DNA of 64,000 nucleotides, from NCBI GenBank assembly GCA_044892505.1, contig CM097883.1, positions 415,958,001 through 416,022,000 of the forward strand, written 5' to 3'. Under the pieces are notes generated by a model, which was not told the origin of the DNA, ran no database searches, and worked only from the letters and a program-made list of their open reading frames with translations. The translations under genes were made by a program, and so were the position numbers. This document shows, piece by piece, positions 1-26,928 of this stretch (positions are counted from its first letter, which is position 1; every line of letters starts with the position of its first letter). This stretch comes from Schmidtea nova (Eukaryota).

Positions 1-1007
1 AGCCGTAGTTAGCGTAATTTCATCCTCATAAAGCATGTTCATTCTTCAGTATGACGACTGACACCAGCCAACAGCGAGAACTGGACAAGGCCTGGAGACT
101 CCACCGAGCGTTGGAAAAAGAGCTGAACCAGGAAAAAGCGTTACGTGCTAAAGCTGAGGCACAAATTCAGTATTTACGAACCAGTTGGTTCGCCCCAGCT
201 CGTATGAAAGAACAGATGAGCCGAACGGAGAGAGCTCAAAAGACCGCGGATGATTATTGCACGGAATGGGAAGCAACAAAGATTGAGTTACGCCGATGTC
301 TCCATTCCGTGACGACTTCTTTCATCGATTCTGATTTACGGTCACAAATTCGACCCATCACCTACCAGAAATGGGTAGGAGAACAGAAAATGGCCTGTTT
401 GGTCAGTACCGACACTGACGGTCTCGAAGCGACAACGACTCAAAGTCCGACGGAACCTACAGTTATACCGATTCACGTCGAAAAAATAAAAAAGAGAAAA
501 CGAATCGGCTCCAAGCGTCGACGCCAAAGGAAACTGTTCTCCCAGCCGCTACAAGCGCAAGTGAACAATATGGCAGAAATGTCTGAAGCAGAATGGCTAT
601 CAGAGATATTTCCTCCCGAAGGGATCTTCGCTGAATTTTTAGTTAAATAAAAGTATTGAATGTTACCAGATTCCGGTGTTCTAATTTTTGTTCTTCTATT
701 TTCTTTATTGTTGCGTAATTAATAATAAGTAAATTTTACAACCACACGTTCACATAACAAATAAAATAGCGTAAGTCCTTCTACGGCAGCGTGAACCCGT
801 AAACATAAATGGGGAGTAGTCCTAGCAATAATGCTCACCTGCCCATCATTGTTTAACCACCTTGCGCATCACCAACTTGGTTATCAAGGGAAATAAACAA
901 AGGCGCTCGAGTGAGATTTCGCGGAAATTTATGCATGATCATGGACGGGGAATCCCTAGCCATCGTTAGAATTTTCATCTAACCCCTCCATGAGCCCAGC
1001 ATAAATT
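1..1007 (+). repeat. Distal part of putative 5' LTR (U3 end, R, U5)
   Basis: AATAAA at 646-651 followed by a T/GT-rich downstream element (~680-715); ends ...CCCAGCA(1001) just before the PBS. No second copy is in the window to confirm it. Confidence 0.55.
51..650 (+). CDS. Hypothetical 199-aa protein in the putative LTR; N-terminal coiled coil, basic NLS-like KIKKRKRIGSKRRRQRK
   Basis: Open ORF preceded by acceptor-like TTCATTCTTCAG|T|ATG; its stop overlaps the AATAAA. No homology recognised. Confidence 0.5.
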   Translation: MTTDTSQQRELDKAWRLHRALEKELNQEKALRAKAEAQIQYLRTSWFAPARMKEQMSRTERAQKTADDYCTEWEATKIELRRCLHSVTTSFIDSDLRSQIRPITYQKWVGEQKMACLVSTDTDGLEATTTQSPTEPTVIPIHVEKIKKRKRIGSKRRRQRKLFSQPLQAQVNNMAEMSEAEWLSEIFPPEGIFAEFLVK

Positions 1008-1025
1008 TGGGGGCTCAGCCGGGAT
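1008..1025 (+). promoter_or_regulatory. Primer-binding site complementary to tRNA-Pro
   Basis: TGGGGGCTCAGCCGGGAT matches the canonical tRNA-Pro PBS TGGGGGCTCGTCCGGGAT at 16/18 positions. Confidence 0.75.
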
Positions 1026-1405
1026 CAACATAGCTTTTATCGGAAATTGTGAATGTAAAATCTGCAGAGAATTTTAAAATGCTCTCGTTTTTGTGTGAGA
1101 AAATGAATCGAATAACAACGGAGAGTTTTAATAATTAAAAATTCAACTTCTGTACAAAAACAAATAAAAAATATAATAGTAAATGTTGATACTACCAATA
1201 GATAATAAAGTGAATTTATAAAAACATAATAAAAAACAGAGAAATTAAACAAATACAAATGAAGTCATAAATAACATGTCGGGATGACAATTTACTGAGA
1301 CACGGGGGGAGTTGTTAAATATTAAAATATGCAAAACGAAATATATTACTACTTTGAAATAATGATGAAAATAACAAACAATTAAAACAATTAATTATTT
1401 AGTAA

Positions 1406-1867
1406 ATGGAGGAAAAGCTGAAGGAAATTGAGGAATTTTTCAACAAGGAAAACGAGACATTAGGAATAATTTGCAAGAAAATAACCCGATTGAGAGAATC
1501 CGAATTTCAGGAACCCACAACACAGACCGAGGAAACAGACGAATTAATAAAGATCATAGAGAAAACAAGTAACATCGACATAAATACTCGTTACAAATGG
1601 TATAAAGCGCGACTAGAAGATGCTGATCTGAACATTAGGTGCCGACAAATAGAACAACGATTAACCCCAACATATAATCGATGGATGGCGCAAGGGGTAA
1701 AAGCAGCGAAAAAATACCGACAGTGTTATATATGTGAGGACAGCGAAATACAAATTATGTTTTTACCTTGCGGACATTTTCGTTTTTGTAAGATTTGTGC
1801 AAACCAGTGCGACCGATGTCCTATGTGCAACTTTACTGTGAATGAAAAAATTGTGGTTTATTTATAA
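1406..1867 (+). CDS. IAP/XIAP-type C-terminal RING finger protein (C3HC4 E3 ligase), no BIR domain
   Basis: CYICEDSEIQIMFLPCGHFRFCKICANQCDRCPMCNFTVNEKIVVYL closely follows the IAP RING pattern at the extreme C-terminus. The ORF is intact and intronless. Confidence 0.85.
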   Translation: MEEKLKEIEEFFNKENETLGIICKKITRLRESEFQEPTTQTEETDELIKIIEKTSNIDINTRYKWYKARLEDADLNIRCRQIEQRLTPTYNRWMAQGVKAAKKYRQCYICEDSEIQIMFLPCGHFRFCKICANQCDRCPMCNFTVNEKIVVYL

Positions 1868-3126: not shown

Positions 3127-4963
3127 TACACAAAACAAACCAATCAACCAAGCAAGAAGAATCAGAATACGATAATATATAAGATAAGAAAATTGATAAT
3201 CTAAAGGAAATCCCGCTGAGAACAGGAACAATTAGTGTTGTAATAAAACCACCCAAAAAAAAAGACGTCAGTAATATCAACAAAAAAGACCCAAATAGTA
3301 TTGTAACAGAACCAACAGAAAAGAAGAAAGTCGGCAAGGATAGCAACAAAAAAGAACCAAAAGGGAGTAAAGCGAGGAAGATAATAATAGAAAAGTCGAT
3401 TATCGAAAACGATAAATTATCAGTAACAAGCAACAGTTCAAGCAACAAAGAAAACCAAACAGAACCCAAGAAAAACCAAACAAGTGAAATAGAAATCGAC
3501 GAAACCAACAAAGATTATATCGAAGTAGAACAAGAAGTAGAAATTGACGACATCGATAACGATAGTAAAGCATCAGAGAACGAGCCAATAACAGAGAACG
3601 ATCTAAATCTAAGTGAAACCGAAAACGAACATAACAACGAACTAGAAACAAGAGGAAACGAAAGTAAAACAACTCAAGACAGCGGAATCGAAATGAGCGA
3701 ACCAAGAGAAGAGATAAAAGATAAATTTCCGGAGAACCGTTTAATGGAGATGCGAGCAAATTGGAGACTTTTCTAAAGGAATTTGTCATATTCGTAGAAG
3801 TATGCAAATGGAAACCCGAAACGACAGTAAGCAGAATTCAATTATATTTAAAGAATAGCGCATTGAAGCGAAAAATGGATCCAATTCACCTACAGATTGG
3901 CAAGAAATAAAGGATTTTTTCCAACAAACCTTTGGAATAAACAGAGTTCTAAATGAGGCATTCACAGAATACTCAATGAGAAAACAAAAGATAAACGAAT
4001 CAAATGCAGTATATGCGAGTGAACTGAAAAAGTTAGCAAAGTTGACTTTTAATCAAAACAGCCCAATAAGCGATGAGTTAATGGCAGCCATCTTCATAGG
4101 AGGATTAAGAAGACCAGACATAAGAGCACAATTTGGATGTCAAGGGTGCAAAACCATAGATCAAGCGTTAGAAACAGCGAATAGATTCGAATTACATATG
4201 ATAGGAAGTGAGGGCAGAATTTACTTAGCCATGGACACAACGCAAAACGAACAAGAAGTAAATCTTAACAATCACATCCCAAATTCGCAACAGTTAAACC
4301 GACCACCACCTCAACGAAGGAATGAAGGGAATAAAGTACAAAACTTCGGAAACCAAAACAATTACAGCAACCAAGGACAAACAAAACATTGTAAAACATG
4401 TGGAAAGTTGGGACACTGGCAACAAGAATGTTATCAGAACTTGAATTGCGGAATATGCGGAGTAAAAGGACACTCAGAGAATAGATGCTACACAATAACC
4501 TGTTTTAATTGTGGACGACCTGGCCACCGATCAAGAAATTGCGGACAAAGAAGCAATCAACGAGGAAATTGGCAGAGTAATTGGAAACCGACAAAATTAT
4601 AGAAATCAACCAAATAATGGAAACCGACAAAATTATGGAAATCATCCACAAAATGGAAACCGACAATATTACGGAAACCAACAAAATAATAATAATAATA
4701 ATCAGAATTAAACCACCACCAAGGAAATACATCTGATGCAAGAAGTCCAAAGATTGACGGAACTTATGAATAAGACAAGAGGAAATCCGCAAACCGGTCA
4801 ACAACAAATCAACATGATGAGAAAAGTAGAAAGCGAAAACGAACGATTGAATCAAGAAAGCCAGGCACGACATGCTCAAGAATGGGCAAGAATACAAAGA
4901 GAGGATGAACAAAAACAGCGGGAAAGAGAACGACAACCGATAATGAAAGTCGAAAAGAAATAG
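3127..4963 (+). pseudogene. gag: Gag: acidic/basic N-terminus, capsid-like domain, three CCHC zinc knuckles, N/Q-rich tail; frameshifted
   Basis: FNGDASKLETFLKEFVIFVEVCKWKPET capsid-like motif at ~3740; CKTCGKLGHWQQEC, CGICGVKGHSENRC and CFNCGRPGHRSRNC in ORF 3976-4602. Confidence 0.9.
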
Positions 4964-5016: not shown

Positions 5017-7400
5017 GTGAATCAAGAAGAGGAAAGGAAAATTTGGAAAAGAGGAATGATGGTAACCATGCCAAACAATCATGTGTTCCGATTCCAATAT
5101 AACGCCAAAGAAGAAGTGGGTATATTGTTCAACAAAGTGAACAAGATGATTCTAGGAGTAACAAAACTACCCAGAGAAGCGTTCTTACAAATAGAAGATG
5201 CGCCAGAAGTGAAATTGGAGCAAACTGATATATGGGAAGATAGAGGAGTAACAGAGACGAAAAGAAATGTAATGATCATCAAAGAAGTGAAACCAGAGAG
5301 AATTCCACCACCAGTATATCACGAAACACGGATCAGCCGAATATTCAAAGGGAAAATGATACGAAGACGGTTGAAAGAAATAGACGAGTTGGAGAGGAAA
5401 ATGAGAAAAGTTGAAGTAGTAGATGACAAGAGTGAATCAACACAAGAAACTGTCAAAAGCGAAACGAAATCAAAGGAAAATACACAGAGTGAAACGGACC
5501 AAATAACACATATTAATATGTTAAGAAACTCCACAAGAGAATTTTCAGATGAGGAAGGTAACAGCGACGTCAGTAGTTTAGCAGGAGATTTACTAAACGA
5601 ACCCGAAAACGAAAACAAAGGTATAAAAGTAGTAAAGACGTCAGAACCCATTCAAATAAAGGTAGATGAAATTCAGAAATTATTAGATAACGCATTGGAA
5701 GTGATGTATAACACAGAATTAATTGACAAGAAACGATATCGAAAGTTTATGAGGGCAGTACTACGAATGAATTACAAAGAATGGTTACAAGACCGAGAAG
5801 TAGAAATGCTAAATCGATACGTGGGAAAACTAATAGAAGAACCACTCCACGAATATATAATCTTAATGGAGATAAAAGACTGTTCACCAAGGATCTGGAT
5901 CAAAACTCCACTCAAGGATGATATTTACCAATGAGAAGACAGACTGGGGAGTTCGTATAAAAACAAATTCATCTATTCACAGAATGGACTAGTGAAGAGA
6001 GGGATGCACATGGTAAAAACAGGCATATGGCCAGGAGAAGTAACAACATTATCAATATGCGATAATAAGAAAGAAGAAAACTTACAAGAAGTGGCAAAGG
6101 AAGCGAACACGTGTTTCGAGATGAGGATAAAACCACAGTTAGATGACGAGAAAGAGTGGAGTTTACAAGGAAACTTAAATTCTATGATAGAACAAATCAT
6201 CCAACAAATCGGAAAACATAGAAAGGAGTTAATGAGAAACGAATACGAAAAGTTGAAACAATGTATCGAATGCATACGCGACACAAGTCATACGAGAATG
6301 TCACAGATCAAATATGGTAAATTAATCGCAAAAATGGGAAAGGCAATGTTCAGACAAGGAAAAATAACGGATCTGAAAATCTCAGTGAAATAACCTAATG
6401 AAGAAACAAAAGAAATTGAGGTAATAGCAGATTGTACTATAGAAGAATTAGTAAATGTCATCAATGAGACACTACTGCAAAGAGAACCAGAAGACGAGTG
6501 GGAAGACGACATAATCATGAAATACAACGAACATGCATTATTGGATCACGATGAAAGACGACTTTATAAAATTGGTATATGGGATAATTACCAAACAATC
6601 CACGTTATCAGAATGGATGATACAGCAAGAGAAACTGCAAAAGACGAGGAAAGAAGACAAGAACGACAAAAAGAAGTCATGCACAAATTAAGGCAAATAG
6701 TAGAAATTTATCGGAATTGGCAGATAAAGCTAGAATGGGAAAAAGTATTAGGAGATTTCAATCTCAACAGACGACGACTAACACCAGTAGGAAAACAATG
6801 GAATGATCGAGGAAAATGTTGGGAACCAAAAGAAGGTGAATATGAAGAGGGATATAAAATAGGAATGGAAGACGACTACAAACCAGAAACGAAAAGAGTT
6901 TGCATGGTGACAAGGAAAATTATGCCAACAGATCAAGATGGACCAGAAACAGAAGCTATATGGTTAGAAAGGGAAAAACAAAAAACGGAAGAATTTGTCG
7001 AAATATTAAAGAGCAATGCGCACGGTAAGAGACGATTAGTAAAAGGTCTCGCAGAATTTTTTATAGCAAACGGAGAAGACATAACATGCTTGCGCAAAGT
7101 AGCAAAAGCAATCGCAGAATAAAAAAGAGTTAACGAGTGGTGCCCAGAGCAATTAGATCACGTAATTAGGAAATGGAGAAATCAAGAATTCTCTCAAGAA
7201 TCACCACAGAAAGTACATTTAAGAATAATATATCCGAACAAGGACAAGGAAGTGTTTTGGGTAGGAATAACAGAGAAAATTCGAGATATTAAAGGAAAAT
7301 TGAGATATGAACTACCATTCCATTTACAACACCAAGGACGATCATTAGATATTGGTATGGAAATCGGGATAACGCCAGCACAACTATATTTCATGAATAC
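5017..7400 (+). pseudogene. Polyprotein segment with three ubiquitin-like domains (~5056-5280, ~6373-6612, ~7213-7395)
   Basis: ORFs 5017, 5992, 6517 and 7252 share one frame separated by single stops. KISVK*PNEETKEIEVIADCTIEELVNVI..YNEHALLDHDERRLYKIGIWDNYQTIHVI and VHLRIIYPNKDKEVFWVGITEKIRDIKGKL..LQHQGRSLDIG follow the ubiquitin pattern; the first domain is weaker. Confidence 0.55.
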
Positions 7401-8039
7401 CTGGACAGTGGAAGCGACAGCGGGTCAACCATTGAAACGTAAAGAGGAAAACAGGAAACCACACGGAAGTACAAGTACGCAGAGCCCGATGAAATCAGTA
7501 TTAACGCCAGGAACAAGTTCAAGACGACCCGAGACATACCGAGGGAAACCAGAGAAAGGACTCCACCACAACCATACGATGTGGAAGAAATATTAACGGA
7601 TAGCGACGACATGATAGAGGAGTTAACCGAATTAACAAAGGAAAAAGACGATAACATTTTCGAAAGAATACAAGAACTACCTAGAACAATAAAAGTAATC
7701 AATACCGGAAATGAAGTCGAACAGGAAATAATAATAGAAGAAGTAAACGACTTATCAGAAGAAGAAACAAGAAGAACAAACGTAGAAAATATACACTTAA
7801 CAAAAGAAATGGAAAGGTGGTTAGAAGAAAGAGCTAACGAACCAACAGACGCCACGGAAGAAACCGGACGAGCAACAAGACTTGTGGAAACAGATACAGA
7901 TAGACGACCCCGTGAGAGACCCAAGACAGATCCAGCGAATATAGTTATAAGAAACAAAGATGAAAAGAGGCAAGATCAATGGGAGTTATGCTTAAAGAAA
8001 TTAAATAAAATCGCGGAAATAAAAGAAAAAGAGACAACA

Positions 8040-8450
8040 CAAATGTGTCAAGGTGAGGAATGGATATCAAAAATAATAATGGAAATATTGGCGATAATTG
8101 ATCCAGAATTAAAAATATATTGGCGAATAAACGAAATAAGTGAAAGGGCAAAGTCATTACATAGCGCAATCGCACGAATTTTACCAGAACTCATAAAAGA
8201 AAATACAAAATCAAACCACTTAGACTGGCAAAGAACCACTACGGTAATAAAGAAACTGACAAAAGGGGCGGAGACGGATAACAAATATTTAATAGCCATT
8301 GCGTACACTATTTACAATCTATTGACACTGAGTAGAGGTCGACCAAAACCTATTGCATTAGAAAGACATATAAAGAATACAGCCAAAATTATAACAAGAG
8401 AAATAGAACCGTACGTCATTAGCAAAGGAGGATGGGAAACATTTACCAAA
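8040..8450 (+). CDS. Bcl-2-like domain within ORF 7581-8849
   Basis: BH1-like NHLDWQRTTTVIKKL and BH2-like ITREIEPYVISKGGWETF (cf. Bcl-2 LNRHLHTWIQDNGGWDAF). Confidence 0.7.
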
Positions 8451-8569
8451 ACCAATCAAAAGAAAACTCAAGCCAAGAATATGAAAAAGAAATTCGAAGA
8501 AATATTGGGAGAGTTGGAAAAAGTACAGTCAGGAACAGGAAACGCAAAATCGTCATTGAATCTGAATTC

Positions 8570-10441
8570 AATCATAATGATGATGTTAATATGGACGATT
8601 AGCACCGACGGAGCAACAGCGTTTGAAGTATTCGATTGTGATCAAATGGCATTAGGTGAGAAATATTCATTACGAGGAACAGAACAATGTAAAGACGCCA
8701 CGCCAACAGAATTAAAAACATTACAAAAGAGACAATTGTACCACGTATACCAGGAAGCGGAACTGATAAGAACAATGGTTAGAGAATGCAAAATTTATAA
8801 ACAAGATTCGCTTTTTATTGTGGACGAGGACACTACTCTGCATTTGTGATGCCAGGAACAGAAAGAGAATCAGTAATGCTACAAGGAGAAGACTGCGAAA
8901 AATTGTTCAGATACGGTGAAATAGAAACAAGAGATAAGATAAAATTAAAAGGGATAGTTGGAGCGATAATACAACAAACGTTATATGTAGCAGGAGCGAT
9001 CACATGAGGAGAAGGTTATTGTCAAGGATCAACTTAGCCTATATTTGGAGTACCAGCAACAAACTTAGTGGTAATTGACACCTATACAGTAGAACTTAAA
9101 ACATACGAAGCGTTTTTCGATCCAATAACGGGAGAAATAAAGACCCTGCCAACGTGTAAAATTGAAGCTAGTACCTGCCAAACTGGTATGTCAACTCTAA
9201 CATAACAGACACGAGGAAATGAATGTCAACTACAATTTTTAAAGGAAGCAGAATTCGATGAAATTCAAGGGAAAACATTCCAAGAAGAAGAGGAGAACGA
9301 AGTAGCGAGAGGAAAGATTCTCAAAGAAACAGTACAAGAGAGAAGGATCGAAGCACGAACACAGGAAAAGCAAATCAAGATGAGAAATACCCCAACGGTA
9401 CTAATCACCTCAGATGCGGATGTAGGGATGAGATTCGTAAAAGGGAAAACAGCCTTAAAATGCGGAGTAGCCATGTTGGAAACCAACTACCCCGTTATTT
9501 TTGTATCAAGACAAGCGGTACCTAATGCAAAACGTCAAGTAAACACGAACGATGTTAAACTACACCTCTACGTGAACAATAAAATGGACTTCCTATGTCA
9601 CAGAGGACAAGCCTCATTACAAAAAATATATTACGACCTAATCAACAACGATTGTATATTAAATAAAGAAATACTGAAAACAAAATTAGCAGTAGCTATC
9701 ACAAACCCGGACAGTGCAATGCCACTATTACCATTGAGAGAAGGTCACTTTGGAAGAGTAGTAGGCGAAGTTATGTACGTATATATATGCAAAAAGACAA
9801 ACGCAAATGTTGCAACTGCGACGAAATTACAACCAGGACAATGAACAAACGAATTAGAAATAGAATATAAAGGAAAAGTGAGATATGTACAGCCAGTAAC
9901 AAGAATCATAAATCCAGTAAGCTTCGAGCCAAATCGTTTCAATTGTAGTAACGCATATGGACCACTATATCAAAAGCCAGATGGTAATTGGGTTATGTTC
10001 CATTCAAGAACAGAGGTACCAGCACCTAGAGAGTTCGAATTAATGCAATTATCGAAAGGACGGAAATCCAAAGATGTAGATGTAAACAATATGGGATTTT
10101 ACAGTGCAAAAGATCTAGAAGCGGCAAGACAAAATATATTATTTCCAGCAAGAAGGGAAGCCGTATTATCCAGCATCGTAACCATAACAGGAGGAACAAA
10201 TTACCAAGGTGGACCAAATTATGAGCTACTATTATCACCGACTCATTTTAAGAAAGCAACCGAAAATATGATAAAAGCGATGTGGGGAAGGTTTTTGATT
10301 TTTGGACAAATGATGGCAGGAATACTTGGCGTCATATTAATACTACAAATAATACGAGTAATAATAAAGCAAATGCTCGCGTGTTTTGACATCTACAAAA
10401 GAGAAAAGAAAGTCAACTGGAAATTAGTGGTAAGATTCTAA
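8570..10441 (+). pseudogene. env: Env-like class III fusion glycoprotein of chuvirus/herpes gB type, with one frameshift (~8815) and several nonsense codons
   Basis: Signal IIMMMLIWTISTDGATA|FEVFDC; then VRECKI, YCGRGHYSAFV, GEGYCQG, GHFGRVVGEVMYVYICKK, VRYVQPVTRII, GFYSAKDLEAARQNILFPARREAV and TM WGRFLIFGQMMAGILGVILIL. The motif order matches chuvirus-type glycoproteins. Confidence 0.8.
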
Positions 10442-10591: not shown

Positions 10592-12960
10592 ATGTATAAG
10601 AACCAAGCACCACAATACATTGAAAAGAATCCAGTTGACGCATGGAAATGTTATGCACCTCCACCAACAATGTATCAAGAATCACCACAAGGAGGAAGAA
10701 CTAATACGATGCAAATGATGCCAATGACGAATATATACCCTATGATAACGGAAGACTATAAAATGAGAAGATGCAGAAGCATGGATCCGCAAGGAGACGC
10801 ACATACCATTGCCGTAATGTCATCAAACACAGGTCCAGTATTAACCACAACCATAGAAATTAACGGAAGGGAAATTGAAGCAATGATCAACACAGGAGCA
10901 AATATTTCCGCATTAGACATTAAATGGATACCACAAGAACAAAGACAAGACATCGAAAGGACGAATGTTCACGTAATCGCATATAGCAAAGAAATCGTAG
11001 AAGTCGAAGGGAGATGGTGGGTAAAAATACGACATTTAAATACAGAAATCGACACCTACGTGGCAGTCATACCAGTGTTAAGCGTACCTTGCATTATTGG
11101 AACAGATCTGATGCCAGCCTTATTTAAAGAAATAGTAATTGATCTCGGAACAATGAGATTAAAAGACCGCACAGGACAAATATGCGCAATAGAAGCAAAA
11201 GTGACCAGTTCAAAGCAAATAATTATACCAGCAAGAAAGGAGAAAATATGTTACGTGAAAATAGACCCTACCATCAAAGGGGATATGATTTTTGAACCAA
11301 GTAAAAGATTCGAGAAAAGGAAGGCGTTGCCAATGGCAAGAGGATTAGTCAACATAAACGATAATTGAGAAATCCCAATAAACGTAATAAACTTCGATGA
11401 AGATAAAATAATCTACGAGAACGAAAGATTAGGTAAGTTAACCCCAATGATGAATATCGAACTACCAATAGAAGGGGAAGAAAAAGGTAAAGAACCCTCC
11501 TGGAATATTGATAGTGAAATATTAAACGAGGATCAAAAGAAACAGTAAGAAAAACTTCTGATAGAATACAAGGATATATTTGCAGCATCCGATTTAGATC
11601 TAGGTACATGCGATGTCACGCTACATACAATATCATTGACAGACGAAACACCAATCGCGTTAAGGCCATACAAATTAGCGGAGGCACAAAAAGCAGTAGC
11701 GGAAGCAGAGGTGCAGAAAATGTTAGATGCAGAGGTAATCGAACCAAGTTGTTCACCCTGGCAATTTCCAGTGGTAATGGTAAAGAAGAAAGACGGAACA
11801 CAGAGATTTTGCATTGATTACCGGAGATTGAATGCAGTAACAAAACGAAACACTTACCCATTACCAGACATTAATGAAATGCTATTAACATTACAGGGAG
11901 CAGCCTATTTTACATCGCTAGAATTGAAAAGCGGATATTGGCAAATAAAAATGAAGGAGGAAGACAAAGAGAAAACTGCCTTTACCATTGGTAGAGACTT
12001 GTACCAATTTCGTAAAATGCCATTCGGATTAACAAACGCACCAGCATCATTTTAGAGATGCATGAATTTCGTAACCCATGGAATAAAACAGTGCATGGTC
12101 TACATCGATGATTTATTAATTTACTCCGGTACGCTCGAACAACACATACCAGATATTCGAGACGTGTTCGTCAGACTCAGACAATGGAAGTTGAAACTCA
12201 AGCCATCCAAATGCGATTGGGCGAAAGAAAAAGTAACATTTCTGGGACATATAGTGTCAGCAAAAGGAAAAGAACCAGACCCTAGAAATATAGACAAAGA
12301 AAAAGAATGCCCAATACCAAAGACAATAACACAGATACAAGAATTTCTCGGATTATGCGGATATTAAAGGAAATTTATAAAGGATTATGCGGGAATCGCA
12401 AAACCCATACAGGAGCTAGTTAAGAAAGATGTATCATTCATATGGGGAAACGAACAGCAAACAGCCTTTGAGACGTTGAGGGATAAACTGATAACTGCAC
12501 CCATAATAGTTCACCCGGACTTCAAGAAGCCATTCTTACTTGCAACAGATGCAAGCGGATATGCAGCGGGAGCAGTGTTAGGACAATACGACAACGAAGG
12601 AAAAGAACGAGTAATCGGATACTATAGCCGAACATTTAAGAAACATGAGAAAAATTACTCGGTAACAGAACGAGAAGCGCTAGCAATCATACTAGCAATA
12701 AAACATTTTAAATATTTATTATGGGGACACATCATCTGTATAACGACAGACCACCAACCACTTGTATGGTTAGGACAACATAAGGAAACATCCAGTAGGT
12801 TAATGAGATGGGCAATGCAATTACAAGAGTACTCACCGAATATAAAATTCTAATCAGGACGAGCAAATGCCAATGCAGATTGTATGTCAAGATTGACATT
12901 TCCGGAATTAACCGATCCTGAAGTACATACGCAAAAGGAACGTACAAAGGAAATGACATA
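10592..12960 (+). pseudogene. pol: pol: aspartic protease (catalytic D>N), reverse transcriptase, RNase H; Ty3/Gypsy type
   Basis: EAMINTGANISAL; RFCIDYRRLNAVT, LKSGYWQI, MPFGLTNAPASF, MVYIDDLLI; LATDASGYAAGAVL, YSVTEREALA, TTDHQPL, RLMRWAMQLQ. One frame with nonsense codons. Confidence 0.95.
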
Positions 12961-13939: not shown

Positions 13940-15885
13940 ACCAGAGCTACTATTATTAACAGTAATTATAACCCTAATTAGTCCAAGTCAAGGAATGATA
14001 TGTAGAGAAAGGGCGTTAATACGGATAGCAAACGCAAAAGGAATCGAACGAGTCTGTTGGTCAAAAAAGGACAAAATCTCTGGTCAAAATAACCCGATGG
14101 ATTGCAGAATCTCAATATCCGAACAAGAAACCATAGAGATCGAAGACCTAGATATGGAAACCTGGTATAGAATATGCACCGTCAGAAAACCAAAGGATCC
14201 TAAGTCACATAAGATAATCGCATGTAAAACATACCAAACACCTAAAGTGACCATGACCAGACACCAGTCACCCGAAGGAGACTACGTCGTTGAAAATTGT
14301 AGAGGAACAGAAGCACCAGAAACGAAAGACAAAAAATCACAAGCAACAGATAAACAAACAACGACAGATAGACGGAATACAACGGACAAGCCCGAAACAA
14401 GAATAGCCACAAATCAAACCGAAAGAGTGACTTACCAAATGGAAGGATTATGTTTAGCACTCATACTAGTAATGATAAAACGATTGGAGGAAGGAATAGA
14501 GATTGACACTATAGAAATGATGGATGTAGAAGATACCTGAAATACCAGCGTAAAATGTTGGGCGAAGAACAATGAGGAAATCGGGATAAACAAAGTAGGA
14601 AAAAGTCAAAAGCTAGCCACGGATAAAATAACAAAAATATCCAAAATAAAAGCGGACAGGACGTATAAACTATGCCTGCTGGAAAAGGAAAAGAACAAGA
14701 AAGGTACAATAAATTGTAAAACATTCCAGCCAGGAGAAGTACTTAAGTTCAAAAGGAGAACAAGACGGAGAAATAAACAAACCAAGCAAAAGATAACTAT
14801 AATGCTAAAAATAACAGGAATAGAACCGGAGGTGAAAGGAGTATGCTGGAGGAATTACGAGAAGAAAACAAATAAAAGAATGACACCCCAATGCCAAACA
14901 AGCACAGGAACAACTACGATACAAATAAAAGGTTTTGAAAGCAAACAAACCTATGAAATATGCCTAGTAAGGAAAAGTGATCAGATAACCATAAACGACC
15001 TAGAATGCGGGATATACACAACTTCATCCGGAACAAGAACTAGAAAGATAACACTAAAAAATAAAAGAAGACAACGAAACAAAGGAAAACCGAAGCATAC
15101 CACTACTTTTAAACACGAGAAACAACCAACAAACCAAGAAAGTAAAACAAAACCCGAGAACGACCTCAGCAACTCTTATATTATGGAAAATAGATAATAA
15201 AACATTAGAAATATGTTGGTCAATAACCCAGAAACAAACAGGCAGGCTACCACGATATTGCAGAAAAACAAAGGAAGAAATTAAGATCGAAAACCTACAA
15301 TTTAATAGGGAATACGAAATATGTGCAATAGAGAAAACGGACTCATTAAGAAATCAACAAGAGAGATGCGAAACGTACTATACACCAGCAAACGCGACAC
15401 CGAAAGGAATAATAAGGAAGCTTGAATTTAAGGAATTAAGCCAAACAACAGAACAAATGGATGCCGAAGAAATAATAATAAACCCTCAAGCAAAATGGAC
15501 ACCCGAAGAAGTAATCAAAGAAGTCAAAAGAAAACAACGGAAACGAGAACAGCTGATGAAGAAACTAAAGGGACAATACGGACTAATGGTTAATCGAAGA
15601 AAATTGATACAAATAGACGTTAACAAACAAATCAGGGAAGTAATTGGCTTAGGAATACTAACAGCAAATATACCAATAATAATCGCATTATTAGTAATAT
15701 GGATGTGTGAGGTAAGTAAAAAGAAACAGACAGCCCAATGGCCAAATATAAATATTACAAACTATAAAATTGAATTACCAGAAGAAATACAGAAAGAATT
15801 TCAAAGAAGGACGAAAGGTAAGGAATTTTGGAGACAAATAGAAGATGAGGAGAGATACGACGAAAAGTTAGTAACGATTGTATAG
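13940..15885 (+). pseudogene. Type I membrane protein: signal peptide, four Cys-containing FN3-like repeats, TM helix, short tail
   Basis: LLLLTVIITLISPSQG signal; four repeats CW...(I/L)xxLxxxxxY(R/K/E)(I/L)C...CxxYxT at ~14050, 14550, 14838 and 15208, like FLRT/LRFN-type FN3; TM VIGLGILTANIPIIIALLVIWMC at ~15641-15709. Confidence 0.6.
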
Positions 15886-16310: not shown

Positions 16311-16460
16311 GTTGGGTAATAAATAGATTGCATAATGATCTAGAACCGGATTCAACAAGCGAGCCATAGATAAACAAAGCGGAAAAATTGTAAATATGTA
16401 AAAATAAAAACAAGAAAATCAAAAATAAACAACAAATCGAATGTATATATTATTGTAGAA

Positions 16461-19006
16461 ATGGATAAAGAAGAACGAGCAGTCGAAATTTTGAGAGCTG
16501 AGAACAGGAAATGGAGCAAGAGGCTCACCTGCGGAAATTGTAACAACTTACTACGAAAACCTAGACAAACTATATGTGGATGTAGAATATGTACTAAATG
16601 TGTACAAGAATTGGGTGTAAAAAGAATAACAGCATGCCCAGAATACAAAGAAGGAAGAATAGTGTTAGACGAAACCAGACCGGATAGAGCAACGCAGAGA
16701 GATTATGAGCACAATAACTGAATGTGTAAACACACCTTGTATATGGCAAGGACAAATAAGCGATTTGGAAAATCACATGGAAAATTGCGAAGAAAAGAGA
16801 ACCGAATGCGAGAAGTGTCAACAGACAATAATTCTAAAGAATAAAGAGCAACACAAGGACGAATGCAAGGAAGAAGAAATTTCATGCGAATACTGCAAAA
16901 CTCGAGAAAAAAGGAGGAAATCGAAGAGGAACACCTGAATATAACCGAGGAGAAAGTATGAGGACAATATGTAAGCATATGTCCAAACAAATGTGAAATA
17001 ACAGAAGAAATAAAGTTACACGAACACTGGAAAGTATGTACTGAAAGACCAAGAGAATGTCCATATAACAAACATGGATGCAAGGAGAAAAGGACGCGAC
17101 AAACAATGAAACAACACTTGGAAGAAGCATCGCTAACGCATGTTGAAATGACAAACGAAACTACAAAAGAAACGGATCAGACAATTCAAAAATTGCAAAG
17201 AGAAATAGAGTCACACAAGATAATGGTAAGTAGACAGTTATGTGGAGCATGAGTCATCGCAGAACAAAGGAAATGACGTCACCCCCCGGGGGGGTTAGGA
17301 ATTTTTTTATGACTCATCGATGACGTCATCGATGACTCATCGGCATGACTCATCGATGACGTCATCGATGACACATTTCAAATTTGAATTTTATGACGTC
17401 ATCGATGACTCATTTCAAATTCAAATTTTGAATTTCCAAAGGTCAAATAAGGTCAAACCTTCAAACAAGGGTATCATTCGAAAGGTCTTTGAGAGGTGCA
17501 CACAATGGTCATACCCTCGATGGTCTATGGTGTGTCCTTAACCTTCAAAGGGTCAAAAACCTTCAGATTTTTCAAACCTTGTGTGTAATACATCATTCGA
17601 AAGGTAATACCGATGTGCACACAATGGTCATACCTTCGAAGGTGTATGGTGTGTGCTCAACCTTCAAGGGGTCAAAATCCTTCAAATATTTTTAAACATT
17701 ACAAGTTATATATCAAACAAAAGGTAATTGAGATTTGAGTATGATGGTCAACCCTCGAAGGTGGGTGGTCGACCTTGGACCCTTTAAGGGTATGACCATT
17801 GTGTGCACCCTTCAATTACCTTTTGTTTGATACATATATTATATAGTTTTTAAAATTTTGAGTCTTGGACCCTTCAAGGGTCGACCACCCACCTTCGAGG
17901 GTTGACCATCATACTCAAATCTCAATTACCTTTTGTTTGATATATAACTTGTAATGTTTAAAAATATTTGAAGGATTTTGACCCCTTGAAGGTTGAGCAC
18001 ACACCATACACCTTCGAAGGTATGACCATTGTGTGCACATCGGTATTACCTTTCGAATGATGTATTACACACAAGGTTTGAAAAATCTGAAGGTTTTTGA
18101 CCCTTTGAAGGTTAAGGACACACCATAGACCATCGAGGGTATGACCATTGTGTGCACCTCTCAAAGACCTTTCGAATGATACCCTTGTTTGAAGGTTTGA
18201 CCTTATTTGACCTTTGGAAATTCAAATTCAAAATTTGAATTTGAAATGAGTCATCGATGACGTCATAAAATTCAAATTTGAAATGAGTCATCGATGACGT
18301 CATCGATGAGTCATAAAAAATGTCCTAACCCCCGAGGGGGGGTGACGTCATTTCCTTTGTTCTGCGATGACTCATGCTCCACATAACTGTCTACTATGGT
18401 AAACCTACTATTAGAAACAAGAGAACAGTTCGAATTAACACGAGAAAATATGGAGAAAAAGATAAAAGCCATCGAAGAATTGGCCAAAGGAATGAAAATA
18501 CAGTACAACAAAATCACACAGGATACCGAGGAAAAACTATCAGTCGCACCATATGTATGGAAGGTAACGGATTTCAGAGACAAATTAGCGGACGCACGAA
18601 ATACGACGAAAACAACAGTAATAAGCACACCATTCTATCTATGGAAAAACGGCTGTAAAATAAGAATGAAAGTTTACCCAAATGGAGACGGAAGAGGACG
18701 AGGAACACATGTGTCGATATTTTTCGCATTATGTAAGGGAGAATACGACGATTTAATAGAATGGCCCCTGGAAGTAGGAGTCATCGTAAGAATCAGAAGT
18801 ATAAGAAAAATGTGGAAAAATTCTTTGAGACAAGTAAGCATGCGAGTACGAGCGAAAAACCAACAACAGAATGTGGATTAGCAGCTGGAGAACCAATGTT
18901 TATAATTCAAGAAAATATATTGGAACTACTATATGCAGACACCTTGTATATAGAAATAGAAAGAAAAAGAACGGACGAGAAAGCAGCAAAGGGATGGTGG
19001 ACGTAA
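16461..19006 (+). pseudogene. TRAF-family protein (RING, TRAF zinc fingers, coiled coil, MATH), intronless, frameshifted and split by an insertion
   Basis: CGNCNNLLRKPRQTICGCRICTKC RING; CVNTPCIWQGQISDLENHMENC and CPYNKHGC zinc fingers; YVWKVTDF..STPFY..GCKIRMKVYPNGDGRGRGTHVSIFFALCKGEYDDLIEWP MATH. Removing 17229-18395 plus one TSD rejoins ESHKI-MV-NLLL in frame. Confidence 0.92.
17229..18395. mobile_element. Non-autonomous Polinton/Maverick-type element made almost entirely of two ~520-545-bp TIRs
   Basis: Termini AGTAGACAG...CTGTCTACT; 6-bp TSD ATGGTA (17223-17228 and 18396-18401); arms ~17229-17774 and ~17879-18395. Confidence 0.75.
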
Positions 19007-19119
19007 TGAAATAGATAACCGTGTAAACAGTATGTATAGTCAAATACCCAAAAATATAAAATAAACAAAAATATAACTGAAAAAAATAAACTGATTAAAA
19101 TTTATCTGTAATTATAGAA

Positions 19120-20181
19120 ATGGGAAATATAGAAGTATGTTTACATGAAATCCCCATACACCAAGATGAAGCTATTAGTAAACACTTGGAACAAATTGAA
19201 ATATGGATCAACGCATATTACCGAAAACATGAGGAGTTTGAGAGACAAGCCGAAGCACTAAAAGAAGCAGAGAAACTAAATCAAAGAAGTCGAGAGAAAA
19301 TAGAAGAAGTATACAAAACATTAAAACAACAAAATGAATATTACAGAGGAATGATGAAAGAACGACGAGAGGAAAGAGATAGACAGCAGATAAAAACCGA
19401 CCACAAGATTCATTCAATTACTGAAGAGGCAAGATACTGCAAAAAAGAGGAGGAAGAATCCTACAAGGAAGCAAGAGAGATAATAGAAAGGACAGCCTAT
19501 AGTGATGATTGGAAGCTATATAAAGAGATCGACGAATTAAAAGAGGAATTAGGACAGAAAATCAGCCAAGAAGTGTCAAATAAAAGATGGAATAAAAAGA
19601 GACAGCAATTTATCTGGGAACAGGCAAAGAAAATTAAAGAACTAACTTATCAAGTACAAAGAATGGGGGAGGAGTTAGCTAACCAAGAACAACTGAAAAA
19701 TATGCTTACCGGAATGTGTAATCACAAAGAGGAAAATATGAAAAGAGACATAAATGGTTACCAAGGAGTGATTACCCAGAAGAAAATAGAATTGAAAAGA
19801 ACCAGAGAAAGACTAGAAGAAGCAAAACAGAGTTATGAAGAAAACATAACCAACTTGACAAAAGAAAACGAGGAACTGAGAAAGAGGTTGACAGAGAAAC
19901 CAATACAGACAAAAGAAACAAGCATTACAGTAGCAGTAACAGAAATGATGAAAGAAGAAGAGAGAAAGACAAAGATAGCAGAATTAGAAAAACAAATAGA
20001 AACACTAACAGAGCAGGCAAACTACCTAGAATATTTATTGGACGAAGAGATTCAGATATCTCATATGTACCGAGACGAAGTTGAAATGTGGAGAAGCACG
20101 GTAGTATGGATGCCACTCCCCATGAACCAAGTGGAACCTCAAGATGAAGGTTTCCACGAACCAAACGAAACCCTAGTGTAA
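19120..20181 (+). CDS. Hypothetical 353-aa coiled-coil protein
   Basis: Long intact E/K/Q-rich ORF preceded by TATAG|AAATG and followed by TGTAAATAAA. Confidence 0.6.
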   Translation: MGNIEVCLHEIPIHQDEAISKHLEQIEIWINAYYRKHEEFERQAEALKEAEKLNQRSREKIEEVYKTLKQQNEYYRGMMKERREERDRQQIKTDHKIHSITEEARYCKKEEEESYKEAREIIERTAYSDDWKLYKEIDELKEELGQKISQEVSNKRWNKKRQQFIWEQAKKIKELTYQVQRMGEELANQEQLKNMLTGMCNHKEENMKRDINGYQGVITQKKIELKRTRERLEEAKQSYEENITNLTKENEELRKRLTEKPIQTKETSITVAVTEMMKEEERKTKIAELEKQIETLTEQANYLEYLLDEEIQISHMYRDEVEMWRSTVVWMPLPMNQVEPQDEGFHEPNETLV

Positions 20182-21514
20182 ATGGAGCGGAAACTAACTG
20201 TAAATAAATGATGTAAAATAAGTGTCAAGCTGTATTGACCTATATGTAAAGAAAGAGATGAGGAAGTTAATAGAAAGAGTTAAAAACAAACGATTTGGTG
20301 TTTTATGATATCAGAAAAGAACTTGTAATCTGTTGTATTCGTGTTTATATTTATTTCCTTGCATTATTTCTGATTATTATTGTAATACATAAGCAATAAT
20401 TGTGAGGTTGTAAGACTTTTTGATGTTAGAAGAAATTAAGAAAGAACTTTAAGAAGAGGAAATTGATGTAGATGAAAAGACAAGTATTCCGATCTATGAA
20501 TATGTTTAAGATGATAAAGAAAATCCAAAAGCTAATCAGGACTTATTTTAATATCAGAAGCTAGCAGGTTTGAACAGAATTGCACTACTATATAAAGATG
20601 CTTACAATGTTCACGATTATTAATTTATCCAGAAATCAGTTGGCATACTTCTGTTATTTTGGTTTCTCAAGTTTATTGCACAATTCTATAGATATCCGTC
20701 TATACAATTTTGTGATTTTATAATTTTATATCAAGTTCTACTCACGAATTATTTTTTAAAAAATGAAATGTCAGATTTGCACTAGCCTTATAAAAATAGC
20801 ATCACTATTGTTGAGGATACATAAATAATAAAATTAAATAATATCATAAATAAAATGATTGGGTGAGAATTGATCGAGTAAACGATATGATGCTCAGGAA
20901 TTCGTAGAAATGAATGAAATCGAACAATAAAGTAAAAGAAGGTCATTGCTAATTAACAACTACAAAATAATTCATTACAAAGATTAGCTTCCGAGACTTT
21001 TTACATAAAAAAATACAAACCTTCCATCAACATTCAATTCGCACAAAAAAATAATGTTAAAAAAAATTTTTAAAAAATTTATTTTCATCCAATAAAATCA
21101 TTATAAAATATAAAATAAATAATTATATAATAATATAACGATTGAAATAGACACTTGATAAAGGCTGTGCCGAAATATTGTGTTATTGTTTAAAAAATTG
21201 TGATTTATAGTTTTATGGAAATTATTAATATTTTTTATTTATTAAAATTTTTAATTAATTACTATTATTTATTTAATATTTATTTATTTCAAATTTATTA
21301 ACTATATAATAAGTAGATAATAAATATAATAAATATTTAATATTAATATTTGTGATGAGTTATGAATGTATATTATCTTGTTGTTATTATTCAATTTTTT
21401 TATCCGTATTTTTATTGTTTTCCATATTTTTATTGATTACCCGGGTTGTTATGTCCGTATTATTGTGTGATTGCGGCAACGTCATGTTACCCCCACTTTT
21501 TATGTTGGCTAATT

Positions 21515-21550
<36 letters not shown>

Positions 21551-22246
21551 CATTTTAAATTAGTATTTTTAATTTGAAATTCGAATTTGGCTTACTATAG
21601 CAAAGGCTATAAATAAGAAATATTGATTATTTAAATAATAATCTAATTAACTTGGCGACAGCTGGAAATTAAAGAAAGTAATAATCGAAGCTAAAAACTA
21701 ATTTAATTCTCTGGATCTACAAGCTATTAAACGTAAAGCGTACGCTGGAACGGAATATCAATCAAAAGACAAGATCTTTTACAAAATTCAAATAAAAAAT
21801 AAAGCTACAAATATAAATTGAAAATTTTACTACAAGATTTTTCTACAACATTGGAATTCATCTCCATTTCCTCTAAATACTTCAACAAACAAAAGTATAG
21901 AAAAATTAACACCTCAACAATAACAACAACAACAACAATCATCCTACAATCCTATCGTAATAAACGATCAACTATCAGAATCTGATAGTAAAGCAAAAAC
22001 TGCACAGACTATTGGCCGATTTGTGATCAGATCTTTTATAAAGTAATTGTATTGTGATTGTTGTTTTAGAGTTTAAATAAGTTAAATAATAAAATTTTTA
22101 TAATAACATATCATTTCGTTTTTACATTTCGTTTTTACCCCGAGTGTCTGCACACGAATACCGCAAGACTCTCTCGGGCGCTTACATTTCTCTTTCATAA
22201 CATATAGATATATTTAATTATAATAAAACGTTATAGTGCAACAAAT

Positions 22247-22258
22247 TGGTGTCAGAAG
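22247..22258 (+). promoter_or_regulatory. Primer-binding site, tRNA-Leu type
   Basis: TGGTGTCAGAAG 3 nt after LTR end ...GTGCAACA(22243); matches the first 12 nt of the tRNA-Leu PBS TGGTGTCAGAAGTGGGAT. Confidence 0.7.
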
Positions 22259-22446
22259 AAAAACAACAAAAAACACAATACACACTCGCCCAATTTTTGT
22301 TCTTTCAATTACTACGCCTTTTAGAATAGCTATAGATAGAGCTCTAAAGGATAGTTGACTCTGTTAGCCGAACACAGTAGGCTATATCCTTTAGTCAATC
22401 TCATTTTTTTCACATTAAAAAAAAGCAACACTACACATAAAGACAA

Positions 22447-23504
22447 ATGGCGTCGAACCAACAAAACCTAACAAACAATCCCCAAACACACAACAACGAA
22501 ACCACACCCAATCAACAAGAGAATACCAGTTATTATTACACCCCTGAAAACCATCACACCATAAATTCGATAATAAACCCCAAGGCAAACATTCCAAATT
22601 ACTTTACAGATGAGAACGGCACACACCAAAAATGGCTAGAGTTCTCAAAACTAACATTGACAATGTCAGGAATTAAATCGACAAAAAGCTTATGTTCCCA
22701 CATAATAGCCGCCGTACCTAGAAATATTCTAAATGAAATCGCAGACTGAATCGACGAAATAGCGAAAAGCGACGACCCATTTAACCTACTATACACAACC
22801 TTATTAAATAGAAATAAGGTGAACAGGAGGGAAGTTTTAGAGTCTTGTCTAAAAGATATACAGCTTGGAAATGACAAACCAAGCGAATTTCTGAGAAATC
22901 TGAAGAGCAAACTAGATTTTTTGCAACCCAAAATCACAAGCGCGGGTCAAAATGATTTCGTGAAAGACCGATTCATGAGGGCAATGCCGCAAGAAATAAG
23001 AAGCATCTTAGTGACAAACGACTGCACAGACCTCGACAAAATTGCCGATATCGCGGACAAAATTAATGACGAAATATTCCCAAAAGTTTGCAGAACATAC
23101 CGAAAACAACACCCGTGGAAAACAAGCAAGAAAACCGTCAAGAACGAGATAACCCCAACAATGATACCAATCTTCTGCTGAACTCGTTAATAAAGAAAGT
23201 TGACGAGGTCTTAACAGAAAACAATAACCTCAGGAATGACTTACAAGAGGCACAAGCGAGAGAAACGAAAAGAAACCAAATCAATCAAAACAACCGTACA
23301 GAACAAAACCCTAACTTTAACCTTTACCAAAATAACCATAACAACCCCACAGAGCAAAAACCAAATTTTAACCGATATAATAACCCAAACAACAGCTACA
23401 TACAAAATGAAAATTGGTGTTATTTTCACAATAGATTTAGAGACAAGGCGTACAAGTGCAACGCACCTTGTACTTTCAACAATAAAAAGCCGGAAAACTT
23501 ATAA
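22447..23504 (+). pseudogene. gag: Gag of a CsRn1-like Gypsy element
   Basis: WLEFSKL..GIKS..LCSHIIAAVP, LGNDKPSEFLRNLK and WCYFHNRFRDKAYKCNAPC; one nonsense codon and one frameshift. Confidence 0.8.
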
Positions 23505-23512
23505 AGTCATCA

Positions 23513-26180
23513 ATGATCGCACCGACCATTGGTGACAGCCAAACATTCACGGTGCAAAGCAACAATATAAATTTCCTCGTAGACTCCGGTTCAACAGTTA
23601 GTTTGTTACCAAGTTATTTGTTCCAATCCTTAAAAGAAGGAAACTACAACTTGTGCGCAGCAAATGGCAGCAACATCAAAACATATGGCAAACAAAAATT
23701 AACCATTAATATAAACAAAACAAACTACAATTGGGAATTTATCATCGCCGATGCGAAACAGGCCATTTAGGAGCCGATTTCCTAGCGAAATACAACTTGC
23801 TAGTAGACTTCCGAAATAAAGAAATTATACAAAATACTTTTGAAACAGAAAAATACCCAAACAACAAATCTAACCAGAAAAACTTAAAAATCTTAACAAA
23901 TTGTGACATCGAAGTAATCACCGCAAACACAATTAAAATACAAACAAAAGACTTACAAACCAAAAATACAACCAAATGTGAAAAAACACACACAGACAAT
24001 AATATACCAAAAGAAATCAAAGAATTACTCAAAAACTACCCTACAATCACAGACAAACTGTCAATAGAAACCACAAATAAATGTATCACAGAACACGCCA
24101 TCATAACAAACGGTAACCCAGTACACGCCAAAGTAAGACAACTGGACAACAAACAACTCACAATAACCAAAGAAATTTTCGACGATTTATTGGAAAACAG
24201 AATCATTCAACACTCCAATTCAAACTGGTCATCTGCGCTCATGTTAAAAGAAAAAGCAAATGGCGAATGGAGAGCATGCGGAGATTATAGAGCTTTGAAC
24301 AATATCACAATACCCGACAAATACCCCATACCTATAATCAACGACATAATCAACAGGATACATAACCCAAATTACTTCAGTAAAATTGACTTACAAAAAG
24401 CATATCACCAAATTCCGGTGCGTGAAGAAGATATAAAAAAACTGCAATAATAACGCCGATCGGGTTATATGAATACAATCAAATGCCATTCGGTTTGAAA
24501 AACGCAGCCGCCACTTTCCAAAGGTTCATGGACCAAATCCTGAGAAACCACAGGAATACGGTTGCGTATTTAGACGACATCCTAATCGCATCAACAAATA
24601 AAATCGAACATATTAAGGACATTAAGGAAGTCCTAAACACCCTAAACAATCACGATCTCAAAATAAATATTAAGAAGTGCGAATTCTTAAAACACGAAGT
24701 CAAGTTCTTGGGACATATCCTTAACGAAAATGGAACAAGACCTCTAGACGACAAAATAAAAGCCATCAAAGAATTCCCACTCCCCAAAACAAGAAGAGAA
24801 TTAAGACGTTTTATGGGAATGATAAACTTTTACCACAAACACATCCCAAAGTGCAGCGAGATACTCGCACCATTAACCTAACATACATACTCAACACTGA
24901 TTGCTCTGGAACAGCAATGGGAAGTACAATATACCAAGAAAAGCATAATGAAAAAAGACCCATCGCATTTTTATCAAAAAAACTCAAAGTTCATATGCGA
25001 TATTCCACTTTTGACAGGGAACTGCTGGCGGTACACGATACAATAAAACACTTCCAATACCTCTTAGAAGGGAAAGAATTCGAGGTGTATACAGACCACA
25101 AACCTCTAGTAAACGCAATCAACATGAAATTACCGTCACCAAGACAAATAAGACAGTTAAATTACATTTCACAATTCAATTGCGAAATAAAATAAATAGC
25201 AGGAGCAGCAAACATATGCGCAGATACCCTTTCGTGAATTGAAACAGAAACAAACGCGATCAGCATGATCCCAATAGTGAATCAAGAAACAATGAGAAAC
25301 AAGCAAGAAAGAGCAATAAAAAACTTTCCAAAACTCAACTCACTTATTCTAAAAGAGATGGATGGAATTTGGTACTATGTCTCAAACGAAAACAACATAA
25401 GACTAAAAGTACATGAGGAACACAGAATCGAACTCATCAAACACGAACTCATGCACACAAAAGTGGTATGGCCGAACATGAGGAAGGACATCAAAGAATT
25501 CGTAAACTCATGTATAAACTGCCAGAAAAACAAAATAACAACTAGATTCAAAACAAAAAAAATTGAAATCCCAAAAACAGAACCTTTCCAAACAATACAT
25601 ATAGACATAGTTGGTCCATTACCACCTAACAACAAACACAAATACCTATTGACGATAATAGACCGATACACTTACTGGTTTGAGGCTATCCCAATCCAAG
25701 AGATCTCAACAGCAACAATTTGCAGGAAACTAGAAATAAACTGGTTTGCGAGATACGGATGTCCAAAAACAATTATTAGCGATCAAGGCAGACAATTTGA
25801 ATCTGATATGTTCAAAGGACTGTGCAACAAATACAAAAAAAAAGAAAGTCAGAACAACAGCATATAACCCACAGTCAAACGGCAAAGTGGAAAGACTTCA
25901 CAGAGCATTAAAACAAGCGATACGAACTAAAGCTAATGACAGAAACTGGTTAGGAAAACTGCCAGAAATCCTAATCGCATTACGAAATAATCCATCTTCG
26001 ATAAATAATAAAAGCCCTAGCCAATTAAATTTTGGACATTCTACAAACCTCCCAAATTTAATAAAAAATGTCGAAAACACGAATAAAACATTCGAAGTCA
26101 AAACACAAACAAAGCATAACGAAACAAAAGAAGCTTTCGTAAATAGAAATGACAAACACAAACTTGCAAAAACACTATAA
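23513..26180 (+). pseudogene. pol: pol: protease, RT, RNase H, integrase truncated before GPY/F
   Basis: FLVDSGSTVS; WRACGDYRALN, DLQKAYHQI, MPFGLKNAAATFQR, AYLDDILI; YSTFDRELLA, YTDHKPL; CINCQKNK, IHIDIVGPLP, IISDQGRQFES, NGKVERLHR. Confidence 0.95.

Positions 26181-26886: not shown

Positions 26887-26928
<42 letters not shown>

Follow-up and report, generated by a model that had tools for sequence, protein, structure and literature searches.

The window analysed here comprises 64,000 nucleotides of Schmidtea nova DNA (assembly GCA_044892505.1, contig CM097883.1, forward-strand positions 415,958,001 to 416,022,000), and all positions given below refer to it. It contains a decayed copy of a giant Ty3/gypsy retroelement, which we assign to the Burro type by the match of its layout to the published description. 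An open frame at 7443–8849 crosses a helical domain, a BH2-like word, a linker, a hydrophobic stretch and the Env start FEVFDC without a stop. A preliminary description of this DNA had read Bcl-2-like motifs, the hydrophobic stretch and FEVFDC as one uninterrupted frame, and in this respect it was right. The frame is, however, no gene of its own. It is 79–84% identical to an unbroken frame elsewhere in the same genome, and alignment to that copy places frame changes near 7530 and 8810, so that 7443–8849 is a piece of a single Burro-type polyprotein between two frameshifts. Both of its ends result from decay, and position 7581, previously taken for a start, is merely an in-frame GTG codon. Treating 7581–8849 as a unit had also overlooked the polyprotein of 5,140 residues, which was already described. 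For the coordinates of all parts see Table 1.

Table 1. Parts of the Burro-type element in the window.
Feature	Position	Strand	Evidence or remarks
LTR remnant	764–1078	+	72% match to the 3' end of the unbroken copy's LTR
Accessory RING-finger ORF	1406–1867	+	PF13920, E 2.6e-11; ahead of gag
Gag, two CCHC knuckles, frameshifted	3183–4602	+	Pfam; alignment to the unbroken copy
Possible ubiquitin-like domain (weak)	7123–7530	+	PF23326 at E 0.25 only; upstream of the spacer
Open frame	7443–8849	+	468 aa, stop to stop; fragment of the Gag-Env-Pol polyprotein bounded by decay frameshifts
Acidic low-complexity spacer	7581–7970	+	upstream of the Bcl-2-fold domain
Extra helix with BH3-like L-x-x-I-A-E pattern	7971–8042	+	ahead of the Bcl-2-fold domain; some sister families only
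Bcl-2-fold domain, nine helices	8043–8465	+	fold model, profile, structural matches
BH1 position, reads TDNKY	8274–8288	+	alignment to host INWGRI
BH2-like word ending in GGW	8409–8435	+	alignment
Polar, lysine-rich linker from BH2 to the hydrophobic stretch	8436–8555	+	about 45 residues
Predicted internal signal peptide of Env	8556–8621	+	h-region 8571–8603, polar c-region, predicted cut after 8621
Env start FEVFDC	8622–8639	+	directly after the hydrophobic stretch
Env, Monjiviricetes-type fusion glycoprotein	8622–10441	+	PF24664, E 1.5e-18 and 3.8e-25 in the window
Protease, reverse transcriptase and RNase H, with stops	10847–12853	+	Pfam
Deletion site	12928	+	~830 codons (~2.5 kb) lost: integrase and ankyrin repeats
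Second internal signal, then an ectodomain with cysteines and FN3-like repeats, TM	13947–15715	+	signal 13947–13994, TM about 15649–15715
Accessory TRAF-like ORF (RING, zinc finger, MATH)	16374–18881	+	Pfam; divided by the insertion 17229–18396

Compared with the unbroken copy, the window copy shows about 10 frameshifts, many stops, the deletion of ~830 codons and the insertion in the TRAF ORF, and a 3' LTR was not found within the window. Its Env is interrupted by the frameshift near 8810 and by stops, with a C-terminal transmembrane helix (TM) near 10310–10370; the Env of the unbroken copy matches PF24664 with E 9e-72. The insertion at 17229–18396 is a 1,168-bp palindromic (foldback) sequence with internal 119-bp repeats. 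It was considered as an LTR and rejected, as the alignment to the unbroken copy places it as an insertion inside the TRAF ORF. A coiled-coil-like accessory ORF of 360 residues at 19099–20181, for which no family match was found, is kept in unbroken copies (L033:3560-4666, L038:5155-6240). Further downstream, long inverted repeats at 21493–27023 flank about 4 kb with decayed protease-, RT- and integrase-like frames of another, small retroelement (23710–25864). The window copy is dead, and the junction of the Bcl-2-like domain with Env is a trait of the family.

To place the junction, a genome search was carried out, which gave 2,463 candidates; scoring was confined to the 134 best of them, a choice that favours unbroken copies and does not give population rates. 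In 121 of these best 134 there is no stop across the domain, the signal and the Env start. Open frames of at least 5,000 residues hold 42 of the 134, and in 24 of the 134 the frame is exactly 5,140 residues long. Among 30 loci that were fetched, the path from BH2 to Env is open in 28, and the stops in the other two lie at differing places. The earlier idea of a fusion could have been overturned by a stop or frameshift between the two domains in other copies, and none is common to them. Given these counts (121/134 and 28/30), the junction is not due to chance. One unbroken copy was read in three separate stretches; it holds Gag knuckles, Env, protease (PR), reverse transcriptase (RT), RNase H (RH), integrase (IN) and ankyrin repeats in a single frame. 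Its LTRs of 3,242 bp (L031:464-3705 and L033:5526-8767, ~28.3 kb apart end to end) are 99.94% identical, so that, judged by this identity, the family was inserted very recently.

The same junction of Bcl-2-like domain, signal and Env was observed in further families with frames of 3,073 to 3,401 residues and in six database proteins. Of 30 database proteins, 7 have the Bcl-2 domain according to a profile built from the genome rows, which did not detect it in the remainder. Trees of Env and of RT recovered no order of gain versus loss of the Bcl-2 domain, with one Env row (P0021) that may be mis-anchored, and gave no answer as to whether the signal predates the domain. A Burro-like Env-Pol polyprotein among the database entries (P0020) is labelled at source as a protein of a Flavobacteriaceae MAG and is likely host DNA that was mis-binned. 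Near the end of a copy of the 3,073-residue family a helicase/ATPase-like frame is present (L116:9257-9895, Pfam RNA_helicase, E 5e-7).

Earlier work on Burro/GYPSM1 elements is reportedly that of Jurka 2007 and Grohme 2018. The arrangement of Bcl-2 and Env described here has already been published: in the section on Burro of PMC6431247, planarian Burro/GYPSM1 is described with a BCL2-like motif and an in-frame Env between BCL2 and protease. Our elements share with it the huge ORF with Gag, CCHC knuckles, BCL2, a mononegavirus-like Env, PR-RT-RH-IN and ankyrin repeats. We found an ORF of ~5,000 residues with Gag, Env and Pol in frame, BCL2 followed by Env and then protease, the PR-RT-RH-IN order, long LTRs, a total near 30 kb, and TRAF/MATH, RING and ankyrin cargo. 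For a Burro element of a second species the same section gives an ORF1 of 5,140 residues, two knuckles and a separate TRAF ORF, and all three features are found here in an element of about 28 kb. The TRAF ORF lies downstream of ORF1 in our case, whereas it is placed upstream in PMC6431247. BIR, dUTPase and midasin are reported there by HHpred, whereas BIR, dUTPase-like, SUMO-like and midasin-like motifs had no Pfam match at E 0.05 in the pieces that we scanned. The published layout has a Ubi2/SUMO-like motif at the place of 7123–7530.

The window protein taken alone gives no Bcl-2 match in Pfam and fails the PF00452 cut-off, and the assignment of its domain therefore rests on its relatives and on the fold. 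A phmmer search of the PDB with this protein gave Bcl-xL as the best match at E=2, and a word-index search of longer proteins returned no Bcl-2 match. HEAT/ARM-like Atlas leads for the window domain were rejected for their low recognition. Among the relatives, 21 of 26 aligned rows of element-borne domains match PF00452 at E<=0.1, copies of sister families found in the genome score above its cut-off of 31.4 bits (L049 has 34.9), and a profile of the element-borne family matches Bcl-xL with E 9e-9.

An AlphaFold2 model was calculated from 26 element-only rows, with no cellular Bcl-2 protein included. It contains nine helices (pLDDT 82, pTM 0.81) bundled around a central hydrophobic helix. All 41 matches listed by Foldseek in the PDB belong to the Bcl-2 family, with E from 0.002 to 0.01, none of them reaching E 0.001, and TM scores up to 0.74. 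An earlier model from 10 rows was poor (pLDDT 51), and even then Foldseek listed Bcl-2 proteins alone. In VIA, which re-aligns the list of Foldseek and is not an independent fold search, 50 of 50 rows were of the Bcl-2 family. The best of them was BFL-1/A1 with a Z of 14.8 and an rmsd of 2.5 Å over 134 aligned residues; Z values near 13–15 are modest for a helical bundle. The best structural matches are the pro-survival proteins BFL-1 and Bcl-xL and the herpesviral or ASFV v-Bcl-2 proteins, with identities of 15–17%, and the viral library is topped by v-Bcl-2. The fold check proposed in the preliminary description, by AlphaFold and Foldseek, was thus positive. Judged by this model, the domain does have a Bcl-2 fold, though a degenerate one.

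Of the two motifs claimed before, one is kept. The BH2 part of that claim holds, as the G and the W of the GGW word are nearly invariant across the 26 rows. The BH1 part does not. [quoted passage not shown] One sister family has NWDR and others have further words, so that NWGR is replaced nearly throughout. A W-bearing word at 8217–8231 was considered as BH1 and rejected, as the alignment puts BH1 at 8274–8288. Compared with BFL-1/A1, Bcl-xL, herpesviral v-Bcl-2 and ASFV A179L, the element-borne domain has the same helical fold over 130–138 residues, the GGW of BH2 and a hydrophobic C-terminal segment. It differs from cellular and viral Bcl-2 proteins in the missing NWGR, in its low identity to them (11–17%) and in being made within a polyprotein, and its C-terminal segment is a predicted cleavable internal signal 45 residues behind BH2.

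Two observations concern the surroundings of this fold. The extra helix with the BH3-like L-x-x-I-A pattern at 7971–8042, a pattern also seen in L049, L050 and P0028, could occupy the groove of the domain itself. At least 14 Bcl-2-like loci of the host were noted (L040-L048, L051, L059, L061, L065, L068), several of them without NWGR, e.g. L045, L047 and L059. The best of these against the element profile was L045 (E 9e-9, search with 14 rows), a weak lead to the donor group. A canonical BH3 exon of host Bak-like genes was not found in the 40 kb scanned.

The hydrophobic stretch at 8556–8621 was assigned by hydropathy and inspection. Its layout is that of a signal peptide: the n-region is basic, the h-region is short, within the 10–15 residues usual for one, and the c-region is polar, and a luminal-type domain and a TM follow. 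Small residues stand at positions -3/-1 in 29 of 30 loci, and in the unbroken copy the Pfam model of the fusion protein begins at this stretch. Eight relatives that lack the Bcl-2 domain have the same signal in front of Env. Most likely, therefore, the stretch is Env's own internal signal peptide. A cut by signal peptidase before Env is likely from the -3/-1 residues and the start of the Pfam model, in agreement with the cleavage proposed before.

Nothing suggests from these comparisons that the signal has been reshaped into a Bcl-2 tail, because its hydropathy is no lower without the Bcl-2 domain, its hydrophobicity is weak and its distance from BH2 is variable. The median of the best 19-residue hydropathy (KD19) is 1.97 in the eight relatives without the domain and 1.77 in 15 with it (p 0.48). 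The rows compared are not independent; six whose upstream part was too short were left out, and the pattern missed 8 of the 28 database proteins and 2 of the 11 genome rows. Within the window family KD19 is 1.3–1.5, whereas the Env TM reaches 2.6 and two Bcl-2-like tails of the host reach about 1.7. These two host tails end in basic residues, whereas the element helix has none behind it. The distance from BH2 to the signal varies between 26 and 58 residues among families. A putative word recognized by the element's protease occurs at several borders of the 5,140-residue frame and in none of 15 linkers. This word is rare (~1 per 300 residues) and bound to the family, being absent from the borders in two families, and its absence from the linkers may, weakly, fit an anchor that is kept.

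With a cut at this place, the piece upstream must end in the signal, and the Bcl-2 part would therefore at first be tethered to the ER. This part of the earlier proposal of an ER-anchored Bcl-2 follows from topology. The other part, a signal doubling as tail anchor, is not supported by any evidence specific to it, and we regard a lasting anchor for the Bcl-2 part as doubtful. The flavivirus analogy that had been invoked even speaks against it. According to PMC7601889, flavivirus capsid protein (anchor C) loses its anchor to NS2B/NS3 and HCV core its signal to signal peptide peptidase, so that the analogy predicts a passing tether. Flavivirus anchor C and the HCV core-E1 junction share with the element that a cytosolic protein ends in the signal of the next glycoprotein and that signal peptidase makes the luminal cut. 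They differ in that their upstream protein is a capsid from which the anchor is later removed; in the element it is a Bcl-2-fold domain, and the cut is a predicted one.

Substitution rates were compared between two subfamilies. The dN/dS ratio is 0.05 for the domain, 0.10 for the linker, 0.03 for the signal, 0.06 for Env and 0.12 for the acidic spacer, and in the window family the signal is very conserved with 1.5 replacement changes in 21 codons. Purifying selection acts on the whole frame and singles out no special role for the Bcl-2 domain; the ratios are therefore evidence of translation more than of such a role. Among the sequencing runs that a search listed as carrying the sequence, none was an RNA run.

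Three families here, and likewise three relatives that lack the Bcl-2 domain, have the hydropathy pattern signal, Env, TM, Pol, signal, ectodomain, TM. The polyprotein accordingly ends in a second predicted membrane protein of type I, the part at 13947–15715. Its ectodomain is FN3-like by eye, with an Atlas lead of 0.87 for the C-terminal ectodomain, and FN3 found no sequence match there in Pfam or the PDB. Two other families (L114, L116) have a signal/TM pair after integrase as well, as do P0002, P0020 and P0021, and a subfamily with a frame of 5,690 residues has one additional hydrophobic segment (L038).

Based on these results we consider the following course of events probable. The element makes a Burro-type Bcl-2-fold domain within one Gag-Env-Pol polyprotein, the Env signal is cut by host signal peptidase, and the Bcl-2 part lies on the cytosolic side of the ER, tethered at first, where it likely acts on cell-death or stress signalling. 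In this course, the region from Gag to Bcl-2 would stay in the cytosol while the Env signal directs Env into the lumen. Once signal peptidase has cut after the Env signal, the Bcl-2 part would be left on the cytosolic face, initially tethered. The Env TM would bring protease, RT, RNase H and integrase back to the cytosol, and the second signal and TM would release a further membrane protein. Somewhere upstream, the protease of the element would free the Bcl-2 piece from Gag. The tether would be a by-product of the Env signal and not a specially shaped Bcl-2 tail, and it may later be trimmed by signal peptide peptidase or by the element's protease. By analogy, the overall topology would be that of a flavivirus-like precursor. 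A pro-survival action of the Bcl-2 part fits its structural neighbours and the IAP cargo reported for Burro.

Several other readings have to be weighed against this one. That a helical region matches the motifs by chance, or that 7581–8849 is a stand-alone gene, has hardly any credibility left: the window protein taken alone, with its missing Pfam match and its HEAT/ARM-like leads, would allow it, but profile, fold and copy evidence refute it. Whether the tether lasts is another matter. If the signal persisted as a tail anchor, the product would be an ER-anchored, BH3-binding, anti-apoptotic viral Bcl-2. After the cut its topology would match a tail-anchored Bcl-2 protein, with the domain in the cytosol and a helix at the C-terminus, the domain directly precedes the signal in every family examined, and the low dN/dS of the signal and, weakly, the linkers devoid of the protease word point the same way. 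Burro1 is moreover reported to protect stem cells from apoptosis by other cargo, B-IAP (PMC13465017, which cites Lee et al. 2026 for this). Against it, the signal exceeds that of relatives lacking the domain neither in length nor in hydrophobicity, the stretch is weak for an anchor in the window family and stands behind a linker of 26 to 58 residues, basic residues are missing behind the helix where the two host tails have them, NWGR is replaced in nearly all families, and the anchors of flaviviruses and HCV are removed (PMC7601889). On balance this outcome is possible, though we would not expect it.

A similar, low degree of belief applies to the idea that the anchor is trimmed and that a soluble Bcl-2-fold scaffold blocks immune or stress signalling and not apoptosis, in the manner of vaccinia A46, A49, A52, B14 and K7. 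Poxviral Bcl-2-fold proteins of this kind target NF-kB according to the relevant part of PMC7022251. The lost BH1 word, the 15–17% identity to the best structural matches and the accompanying TRAF, RING and ankyrin cargo are in line with such a role; those best matches, however, are pro-survival BFL-1 and Bcl-xL and the herpesviral and ASFV v-Bcl-2 proteins and not the poxviral ones, and the GGW of BH2 is nearly invariant. More improbable is a domain that is never cut from Gag, in which case the signal would hold the complete Gag precursor at the ER, next to Env, for budding, like uncleaved flavivirus capsid, and the Bcl-2 fold would be a spacer or passenger. Gag and signal do share one frame with no hydrophobic segment between them, the signal exists without Bcl-2, and full-length anchored capsid takes part in flavivirus assembly, as described in PMC7601889 for that step. 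The putative protease words between Gag and the domain speak against this, as do the kept fold and the selection on the domain in several families. Finally, the reading that we prefer can be extended. Flavivirus-like processing with two signal-peptidase cuts and two stop-transfer helices would then free Env and an FN3-like surface protein, and the leftover signal would become the lasting anchor of a Bcl-2 that was captured, lacks NWGR and prevents the host stem cell from dying while the element replicates. As a whole we hold this extension to be rather unlikely.

As the arrangement itself is in print, finding it once more adds little. Neither signal peptides nor membrane topology are mentioned in the section on Burro in PMC6431247, and it is likewise silent on the missing NWGR and on a second membrane protein. 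Our literature searches did not find the signal-peptide reading, which Grohme 2018 and Lee 2026 may cover. New here are the fold check, the loss of BH1, the evidence for a signal that belongs to Env in general, and a topology of four segments that includes a second membrane protein. They add structural support for the BCL2 label, a lost BH1 word and a membrane topology common to several families. Should the tether persist and the domain prevent cell death, Burro would have a second anti-apoptotic cargo next to the IAP already reported, and this in stem cells of an animal used as a model of regeneration. In that case it would also show how a mobile element can equip a protein captured from its host with a new membrane anchor without extra cost.
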